Sequence record: PZ445517.1
Length of the DNA stretch: 64,000 nt
Strand: one strand, 5' to 3'
Source of the DNA: a phage
Position numbers and translations under genes: made by a program. The number at the start of each line of letters is the position of its first letter. Position 1 is the stretch's first letter. This document shows positions 15,469-18,981 of the stretch, one piece after another. Below the pieces are notes generated by a model. It saw only the letters and a program-made list of their open reading frames with translations. It made no database searches and was not told where the DNA came from.

Positions 15469-16329
15469 TTACACCGCCATTTTTCCTTTCAAGACACCAT
15501 GGGACTGATAATCTTTAAGAACGAAATCTCGCGATGTCATATATTCAGTTAACCAATACATTTGAGTTTCAGTATCGCATTGGCTGAATCCATTAGGCCA
15601 ATTAATACTGAGTTTGCACAGGTCCATAGGAGTTCTATTTAATATCTCTTTGCATTGCTCAATATGGTTAGAATAAATGTGTGTATTGCCACCCGAAAAT
15701 ACCAAATCGCCTGGAACTAGTTCACACATGTCAGCAACAATATGTAAGAGAGCAGCATAGCTCGCGATGTTAAATGGAAGACCGAGGAAAACATCTACCG
15801 AGCGTTGATACCATTGGAGGTCAAGGTATCCGTTACGAACATTAAACTGATAGAACATGTGACAAGGCGGTAATGCCATTTGCTTGAGTTCAGCTGGATT
15901 CCACGCCGACACAATTTGTCGCCTATCGTTTGGAAATGTTTTAATACGATTAACAACTTCTACAATTTGGTCTACACCGCCAAAATCACGCCATTGTTTT
16001 CCGTAAATTGGACCAAGTTCACCACTATGATAACCTAGGTCTTTGGCCTGATTTTCGTAGTTTTCATCCCAAATCGTTTTTCCAGCAATTAAGGATCCAT
16101 GAGTACGTTTACGTAGATCATTTACGTTAGTACTTCCTGATAAGAACCACAATAACTCAGAAATACACGCATTCCAGGCGAGCTTCTTAGTTGTTACTGC
16201 AGGAAAACCTTTACTTAAATCCCAGCGTAATTTAGTACCGAACAAAGCAATTGTTCCTGTGCCCGTTCGGTCATCGGTTTCATAGCCATTTTCAAAAATG
16301 TCTTTAATTAAATCTTGGTATTGTTTCAT
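15469..16329 (-). CDS. td: thymidylate synthase, continuous (no intron)
   Basis: 286 aa, MKQYQDLIKDIFENGYETDDRTGTGT...; full-length protein in one ORF. Confidence 0.95.
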   Translation of the reverse strand: MKQYQDLIKDIFENGYETDDRTGTGTIALFGTKLRWDLSKGFPAVTTKKLAWNACISELLWFLSGSTNVNDLRKRTHGSLIAGKTIWDENYENQAKDLGYHSGELGPIYGKQWRDFGGVDQIVEVVNRIKTFPNDRRQIVSAWNPAELKQMALPPCHMFYQFNVRNGYLDLQWYQRSVDVFLGLPFNIASYAALLHIVADMCELVPGDLVFSGGNTHIYSNHIEQCKEILNRTPMDLCKLSINWPNGFSQCDTETQMYWLTEYMTSRDFVLKDYQSHGVLKGKMAV

Positions 16330-16374
16330 TTAGTACCTTATATAAATTATAATACATTTTATGAAGCTAAATAA

Positions 16375-16722
16375 TCAATACGGTTTAGCATCAAATTTTC
16401 TCTCAATTTCAGGCGTGAAATATAATTCTTTACCGCGTTTGGAAAAGCGACCAATAATATGATAATTATTCTCATCAAACGTGATATTACCAATATCCAT
16501 AGCTTTCAACCAAATATCGATATTTCTATCCAACTTTATGTCAAAATTCCAATACGGAGAACTATTACCGAAAATACTGCAAGCGGATTCAGTAAAACAA
16601 CTACTATAAATCTTATCTTTAGGAACTACTAATTGATAGACACCTTTAATAAACTGAGGACCCTGCCATTTTGGTTGTTTCGTGTCTTTTTCTAATAGAA
16701 TAGGGTAATAATTAAAATTCAT
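16375..16722 (-). CDS. hypothetical protein inserted between frd and td
   Basis: 115-aa ORF with ATG at 16722; fills a 400-bp gap where T4 frd and td overlap (recalled); no recognisable motif. Confidence 0.45.
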   Translation of the reverse strand: MNFNYYPILLEKDTKQPKWQGPQFIKGVYQLVVPKDKIYSSCFTESACSIFGNSSPYWNFDIKLDRNIDIWLKAMDIGNITFDENNYHIIGRFSKRGKELYFTPEIERKFDAKPY

Positions 16723-16741
16723 ATTTCCGCCACGCGTTATT

Positions 16742-17568
<827 letters not shown>

Positions 17569-17579
17569 ATTATCTCCTA

Positions 17580-17912
17580 TTAAAAAGGATCAGGAACATA
17601 TCCGCTAGCTTTAATCATTTTAATTAACGTTAACATTCCTTTGTTAACTGCTCGTGAGATTTCATCAAAAACTTCATCACTAAAAAGTTCTAACACGCCC
17701 TTCTGAACTTTTAATTTACAGCCAACAATTTCTTCATCGCCTATAGTAAATTCATTACCACCAATTCCACCGAAAAACTTAATTACACCAGTTAACTGTC
17801 TTCCACGAGAATATGGGTCGTGTGATAAAGTAATATGAGTCACCCCGGGTACAGTTTTAAATTGGCAGCGAATATTTACTTGTGAAATTCCAGTTACATG
17901 AATGTCAGACAT
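17580..17912 (-). CDS. hypothetical protein (frd.2 position)
   Basis: 110-aa ORF. Confidence 0.45.
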   Translation of the reverse strand: MSDIHVTGISQVNIRCQFKTVPGVTHITLSHDPYSRGRQLTGVIKFFGGIGGNEFTIGDEEIVGCKLKVQKGVLELFSDEVFDEISRAVNKGMLTLIKMIKASGYVPDPF

Positions 17913-18953: not shown

Positions 18954-18981
18954 AATAAAAAAGGGGACCCTAGAGGTCCCC
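18954..18981 (-). terminator. intrinsic terminator downstream of gene 32
   Basis: GGGGACC-UCUA-GGGUCCCC hairpin followed by U-run on minus transcript. Confidence 0.65.

Follow-up and report, generated by a model that had tools for sequence, protein, structure and literature searches.

A conserved small gene of PHROG 1928 occupies the frd-td junction of a T-even phage genome

The analyzed sequence is a 64,000-nt stretch of phage record PZ445517.1 (the window), read as one strand, and its source is a T-even (Tequatrovirus) genome. The frd-td region is 100% identical to that of Escherichia phage T4_ev240, and positions 16200-16900 are also 100% identical to Shigella phage JK38. On the minus strand, the dihydrofolate reductase (DHFR) gene frd (16742..17323; 193 aa) is followed by an ORF at 16375..16722 with an ATG start, 115 codons for amino acids and a TGA stop, and then by the thymidylate synthase gene td (15469..16329; 286 aa). 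The stretch that belongs to neither frd nor td measures 412 nt (16330..16741). An earlier sequence-only reading had noticed that an ATG-initiated 115-aa ORF separates the two genes here and had stated that they overlap in T4. The ORF listing confirms the first point and alignment with the T4 locus the second: in T4 the frd stop and the td start share the 4 nt ATGA, with nothing between them. The td gene of the window is intronless; T4 and several relatives carry the I-TevI intron. Record LR597657.1 ("Escherichia phage T4_ev240") likewise carries the ORF, named td.1 below, together with an intronless td, and is not T4-like in this region despite its name.

Two spacers, both read from the sequence of the minus strand, flank the ORF. 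The frd-side spacer of 19 nt (16723..16741), between the frd stop and the ORF start, contains a Shine-Dalgarno-like GGCGGA (16726-16731) located 3 nt ahead of the ATG. The td-side spacer of 45 nt (16330..16374), between the ORF stop and the td start, contains the td Shine-Dalgarno sequence AAGG (16336-16339) and, upstream of it, a MotA-box-like TTTAGCTTCA (16362-16371) followed by TATAAT (16346-16351) or TAATTT (16344-16349). In T4 middle promoters, a MotA box is followed, after about 12 nt, by TAnnnT. The putative element upstream of td (16344-16371) resembles such a MotA-dependent middle promoter; if it is active, td would have its own promoter in phages that carry td.1. The element is present in T2-type cassettes and absent from phage NHEP29, which is discussed below. 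A sigma-70-like site at 16378..16349 scores 9/12 matches, not above the shuffled background. An Rfam scan of the segment gave no meaningful match, the best hit (E 0.067) being far below the gathering score.

The ORF matches PHROG 1928, a family listed with "unknown function", at E 1e-35, residues 4-111 aligning with profile positions 2-125 of 126. The T2H GenBank record AY262132.2 names the gene td.1 (protein ABI48932.1), records of the RB phages RB14 and RB51 name it RB32ORF229c, and most others label it "hypothetical protein". The window protein shares 99% amino acid identity with Td.1 of T2H and has the same place between frd and td; the two differ by a single residue, T14 in the window where T2H has A14. 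In a few records (e.g., Kelasse) the gene is labeled "dihydrofolate reductase", an assignment that we rejected as the ORF has no DHFR domain. The sequence-only reading had taken the ORF for an unannotated accessory gene, whereas it is real and already catalogued, as Td.1, RB32ORF229c or PHROG 1928, and present as a hypothetical protein in hundreds of genomes. The literature library that was searched held no paper on the gene under the names td.1, RB32ORF229c or phrog_1928, and its peptide is absent from the supplementary text of the accessory-gene screen papers that were checked. What the present analysis adds to the database labels is a paralogy between two subfamilies, the full layout of the junction, its bracketing by a repeat and a confident structural model without a solved relative.

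Homologs were detected by tblastn in 581 phage records, 363 of them at 90% identity or above and 218 below 60%. The former group is T-even and includes T2, RB3, RB14, RB51, RB68, AR1, PP01 and HP3, among others; the latter belongs to other genera. Searched exhaustively with HMMER, 1.84 billion representative proteins yielded only 48 clusters, 47 of which have lengths of 39-148 aa (nearly all 95-148 aa), and no domain fusions. The remaining match, a repetitive beta-sandwich protein of 1806 aa (P0068), was taken as spurious. No paralog of the ORF was found among the ORFs of the window by HMM search. PHROG 1928 is a small family, found only in Straboviridae phages of Enterobacterales.

In the window and in all of the 14 ORF-bearing related loci that we opened, a homolog lies directly downstream of frd and upstream of td. 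These loci include Jiaodavirus Merci, Roskildevirus Cronus, Gelderlandvirus STML-198, Kanagawavirus PEi26, Moonvirus Moon, Kagamiyamavirus EcS1, Bragavirus PM2, Enterobacter phage MY742, Klebsiella phage Biddle, and Providencia and Morganella phages; a 32-kb metagenomic contig likewise has the homolog after frd. At least nine other genera have a diverged homolog (27-47% identity) immediately behind frd, and in the related loci the start of the homolog usually overlaps the frd stop. Relative to the window, the identity of the homolog (29-47%) falls across genera roughly in step with that of frd (45-55%) and td (69-78%), as vertical descent predicts.

The family comprises two subfamilies, A (approximately 100-115 aa), which includes the window ORF, and B (approximately 113-148 aa). 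They are paralogous (hhalign probability 99.4%, E 5.6e-22) and stand in tandem in most of the related loci opened; all 45 aligned members of A and B match PHROG 1928 and no other PHROG. Subfamily B, represented by PEi26 ORF-252, Moon gp253 and EcS1 ORF254, occupies the same frd-td interval and shares with the window ORF the motifs LLxxDxxQKKW, HG(I/V)Y and GRFxKxGxxxxF, but differs from it by some 20 additional residues (PTIxxYKRNP) inserted behind the QKKW motif. Subfamily B is absent from the window and, at the loci examined, from other Tequatrovirus genomes.

A third small gene, unrelated in sequence, can occupy the same junction. In MY742 and Biddle, a 68-aa DUF4858 ORF lies just before td, and a 69-aa ORF in the same place on the metagenomic contig is probably the DUF4858 gene as well. 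The window ORF is not similar to the 68-aa protein and has no Pfam match. In about 135 T-even and Dhakavirus records, including Shinka, pSs-1 and JS98, DUF4858 is the sole occupant of the junction. Positions noted for ORFs of this kind are 2049-2255 of locus L004, 2673-2879 of L009, 3148-3354 of L005 and 4670-4879 of L018. DUF4858 copies at 43% identity were also seen in another phage family, in genomes of Phapecoctavirus. The A-B tandem is often followed by DUF4858, which gives frd-A-B-DUF4858-td as the fullest layout. Among T-even phages, the junction exists in at least three states, namely A only (the window, T2), DUF4858 only, and the empty ATGA overlap (T4, JK45). The plasticity that the sequence-only reading had ascribed to this junction is borne out, and the window carries a real protein-coding gene that T4 lacks.

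This comparison corrects a T4-centered view of the locus. The frd/td ATGA overlap does not typify T-even phages in general but is a single allele at a junction with three states, where most relatives have between one and three small genes. T4 is the exception, and the ORF looks "extra" only because T4 lacks it. The same comparison makes td.1 an example of a well-conserved "dark matter" protein that is always tied to thymidylate-synthesis genes. The description of the ORF as an unannotated gene has accordingly given way to that of a known, conserved T-even gene, an outcome that the sequence-only reading had itself named as the one that would overturn it.

The coding character of the ORF was assessed from substitutions between the window allele and those of T2H and NHEP29 (Nei-Gojobori method). 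The window and T2H alleles are separated by 15 synonymous changes and one non-synonymous change (dN/dS 0.012), the window and NHEP29 alleles by 29 synonymous and 10 non-synonymous changes (dN/dS 0.051, dS 0.71). Pairwise dN/dS among T-even alleles spans 0.012-0.051, with dS up to 0.74. At 0.27, the GC3 of the ORF equals that of frd, which indicates a native composition, and the overall GC content of the ORF segment is 0.30, making it slightly more AT-rich than frd or td (0.39). Six-frame counts in shuffled versions of the 64-kb window average 0.63 ATG-initiated ORFs of at least 115 aa; this expectation, the homologs in 581 phage records and the low dN/dS together exclude a chance ORF. As judged by its pattern of substitution, 16375..16722 is a translated protein-coding gene under strong purifying selection.

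Alignments of the family identify seven invariant residues (Q16, W19, G27, G91, F93, K95 and G97) and four nearly invariant ones (L9, Y29, N79 and F102); the window protein has all of the motif residues Q16, W19, G27, Y29, G91, F93, K95 and G97. The same alignments contain no invariant Asp, Glu, His or Cys, and the lack of a conserved acidic residue, His or Cys is evidence against nuclease or other hydrolase activity. With a median pI of 8.5, the family is mildly basic. The statement of the sequence-only reading that the protein has no recognizable motif held up in profile searches: Pfam returned no family for the ORF at E values up to 10 and none common to more than one of 45 members at E up to 5, NCBIfam gave no match for the ORF or its diverse relatives, and PADLOC defense profiles gave none for five family members at E up to 1. 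A profile search of the PDB produced only chance-level matches (E 0.18 or above).

An AlphaFold2 model built from the 45-sequence alignment (pLDDT 92, pTM 0.85) predicts a helix at residues 68-76 and strands at 6-12, 27-34, 38-40, 48-50, 62-64 and 80-82; the GRFxKxG motif lies on a long hairpin formed by residues 86-96 and 99-104. The model has no significant structural neighbor in the PDB. From these features, the td.1 product would be a small, mildly basic, non-catalytic and beta-rich domain.

The junction itself carries traces of its history. A repeat search showed that a direct repeat of 12 nt with a single mismatch (11/12, 92% identity) flanks the ORF; its copies are spaced by 416 and delimit a 416-bp segment. 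The left copy, TAAATGAAATAA (16737..16748, minus strand), includes the frd stop as well as a relic-like ATG AAA TAA; the right copy, TAAATGAAACAA (16321..16332, minus strand), contains the td start ATG AAA CAA. The T4 frd/td junction holds exactly one copy of the repeat, so a deletion between the two copies would yield the T4 ATGA overlap precisely. The opposite direction can also be read from the same bases, because the ATG AAA TAA of the left copy resembles a duplicated td start, which makes insertion into an empty, T4-like junction possible for the T2-type cassette.

Gain of the gene can be followed in one phage. Compared with the window, NHEP29 (L015, 617-2424) has an frd of only 58-59% and a td of 83% amino acid identity, while the ORF is 93% identical in protein and approximately 88% in DNA. 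Its closest relatives in the region, among them JK45, FL31 and NicPhage, have the empty ATGA junction. A site-by-site comparison showed JK45-like flanks in NHEP29 that reach to within about 20 nt of the ORF toward frd and to within about 30 nt toward td. The 19-nt frd-side spacer is missing, the ORF start overlapping the frd stop as ATGA, and 30 nt of the td-side spacer are missing as well, the stretch with TTTAGCTTCA and then TATAAT. The comparison demonstrates, at the level of sequence, that a T2-like td.1 copy moved into a divergent, JK45-like background, with crossovers in the short conserved gene ends. NHEP29 is a clean case of the exchange of a single-gene cassette between divergent T-even lineages. 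The td protein of the window shares only 82-83% identity with its counterparts in T2H and NHEP29, as against 93-99% for the adjacent td.1, a contrast which indicates that td itself is mosaic among T-even phages.

We consider it probable that the ORF is the T2-type td.1 of PHROG 1928 with the following history. The gene may be ancestral to the frd-td operon. The T4 overlap would then have arisen by precise deletion between the short repeats, or the empty allele would have been inherited by recombination. Ordinary homologous recombination at the conserved gene ends would since have redistributed presence and absence of td.1 among T-even phages that infect the same cell. The term "inserted" thus probably points in the wrong direction at the level of the family, since many genera have a member at this very position behind frd, although it does describe the local gain in NHEP29.

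All of the evidence on function comes from context: the co-location with DHFR, the usual translational coupling and the place ahead of thymidylate synthase. The tentative proposal that we prefer, although we give it rather little weight, is that the phage makes the td.1 product in the prereplicative period, alongside DHFR and thymidylate synthase, as a dispensable binding or adaptor protein without enzymatic activity. It might modulate or tether enzymes of the thymidylate cycle or of dNTP synthesis, or bind a nucleotide or nucleic-acid ligand, and the conserved face formed by Q16, W19, Y29, F93 and K95 could serve as its contact surface. A more specific version, which must be called improbable as it stands, would make Td.1 and its paralog B unrecognized non-catalytic partners, with a fold that has no solved relative, of the T-even DHFR/thymidylate synthase module or of the dNTP-synthetase complex. 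If it were true, decades of genetics would have missed these partners because T4 deleted the genes.

The main rival role is conceivable, although we would not bet on it: as an accessory host-takeover or counter-defense protein, the td.1 product could bind a host factor or an immune system. Host range would then decide whether a phage keeps the gene or loses it, and nucleotide metabolism would not be involved. Such a role would lead one to expect a gene that is present or absent at a site between core genes, as at this junction with its three alternative occupants, and the lateral transfer between lineages; the protein is small, non-enzymatic and confined to phages, and td.1 is dispensable in T4. 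The pattern also fits the concept of the "accessory region" (bioRxiv 10.1101/2023.04.06.535777). However, the gene is under very strong purifying selection and does not evolve rapidly, its place beside frd is fixed across distant genera, and the accessory-gene screens mentioned above do not include the protein in the supplementary text that was checked.

Far less probable is that td.1 is a free-standing homing endonuclease gene, or the remnant of one, that spreads by cutting empty frd/td junctions. It is annotated as "putative homing endonuclease" in the BASEL phages FelixPlatter, AndreasVesalius, KarlGJung and TadeuszReichstein. Like the seg/mob homing endonuclease genes of T4, it is an optional ORF between conserved genes with a patchy distribution among T-even phages, and the flanking direct repeats and the transfer into a foreign background would suit such an element. 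The protein itself speaks against this annotation. Even at Pfam E values up to 10 there is no GIY-YIG, HNH, LAGLIDADG, His-Cys box, PD-(D/E)xK or other nuclease domain, the residues His, Asp, Glu and Cys are nowhere invariant, and a chain of 115 aa has no separate DNA-binding domain. Set against the seg/mob proteins, the td.1 product is much smaller, and it lacks a nuclease or DNA-binding domain and conserved catalytic residues. In further contrast to the seg/mob genes, td.1 keeps its locus across genera, its divergence parallels that of the phages that carry it, and it has a paralog in tandem. The co-conversion tracts in NHEP29, a single case, are only about 20-30 nt long.

We give almost no credence to the view that the ORF is foreign DNA recently inserted in this phage lineage alone, or that it arose by chance in a spacer without coding function. 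It is absent from T4 and sits in a slightly AT-rich, repeat-bracketed segment. Against this, ten or more genera have the family at this locus, dN/dS lies far below 1, GC3 is that of frd, no Rfam family explains the segment, and the 1.84 billion representatives hold no close donor outside Straboviridae. The chance-ORF reading is refuted outright.

The frd-td junction is not the only variable site in this operon. Two more ORFs on the minus strand, at 17323-17568 (81 aa) and 17580-17912 (110 aa), lie between frd.1 and frd, and the stop of the 81-aa ORF overlaps the frd start. Both are absent from T4, which has only approximately 71 bp between frd.1 and frd, and the interval is another polymorphic slot. 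Further upstream, a strong terminator-like hairpin, GGGGACCTCTAGGGTCCCC followed by a T-run (18963-18981, minus strand), lies just downstream of gene 32 and is presumably the gene 32 terminator.
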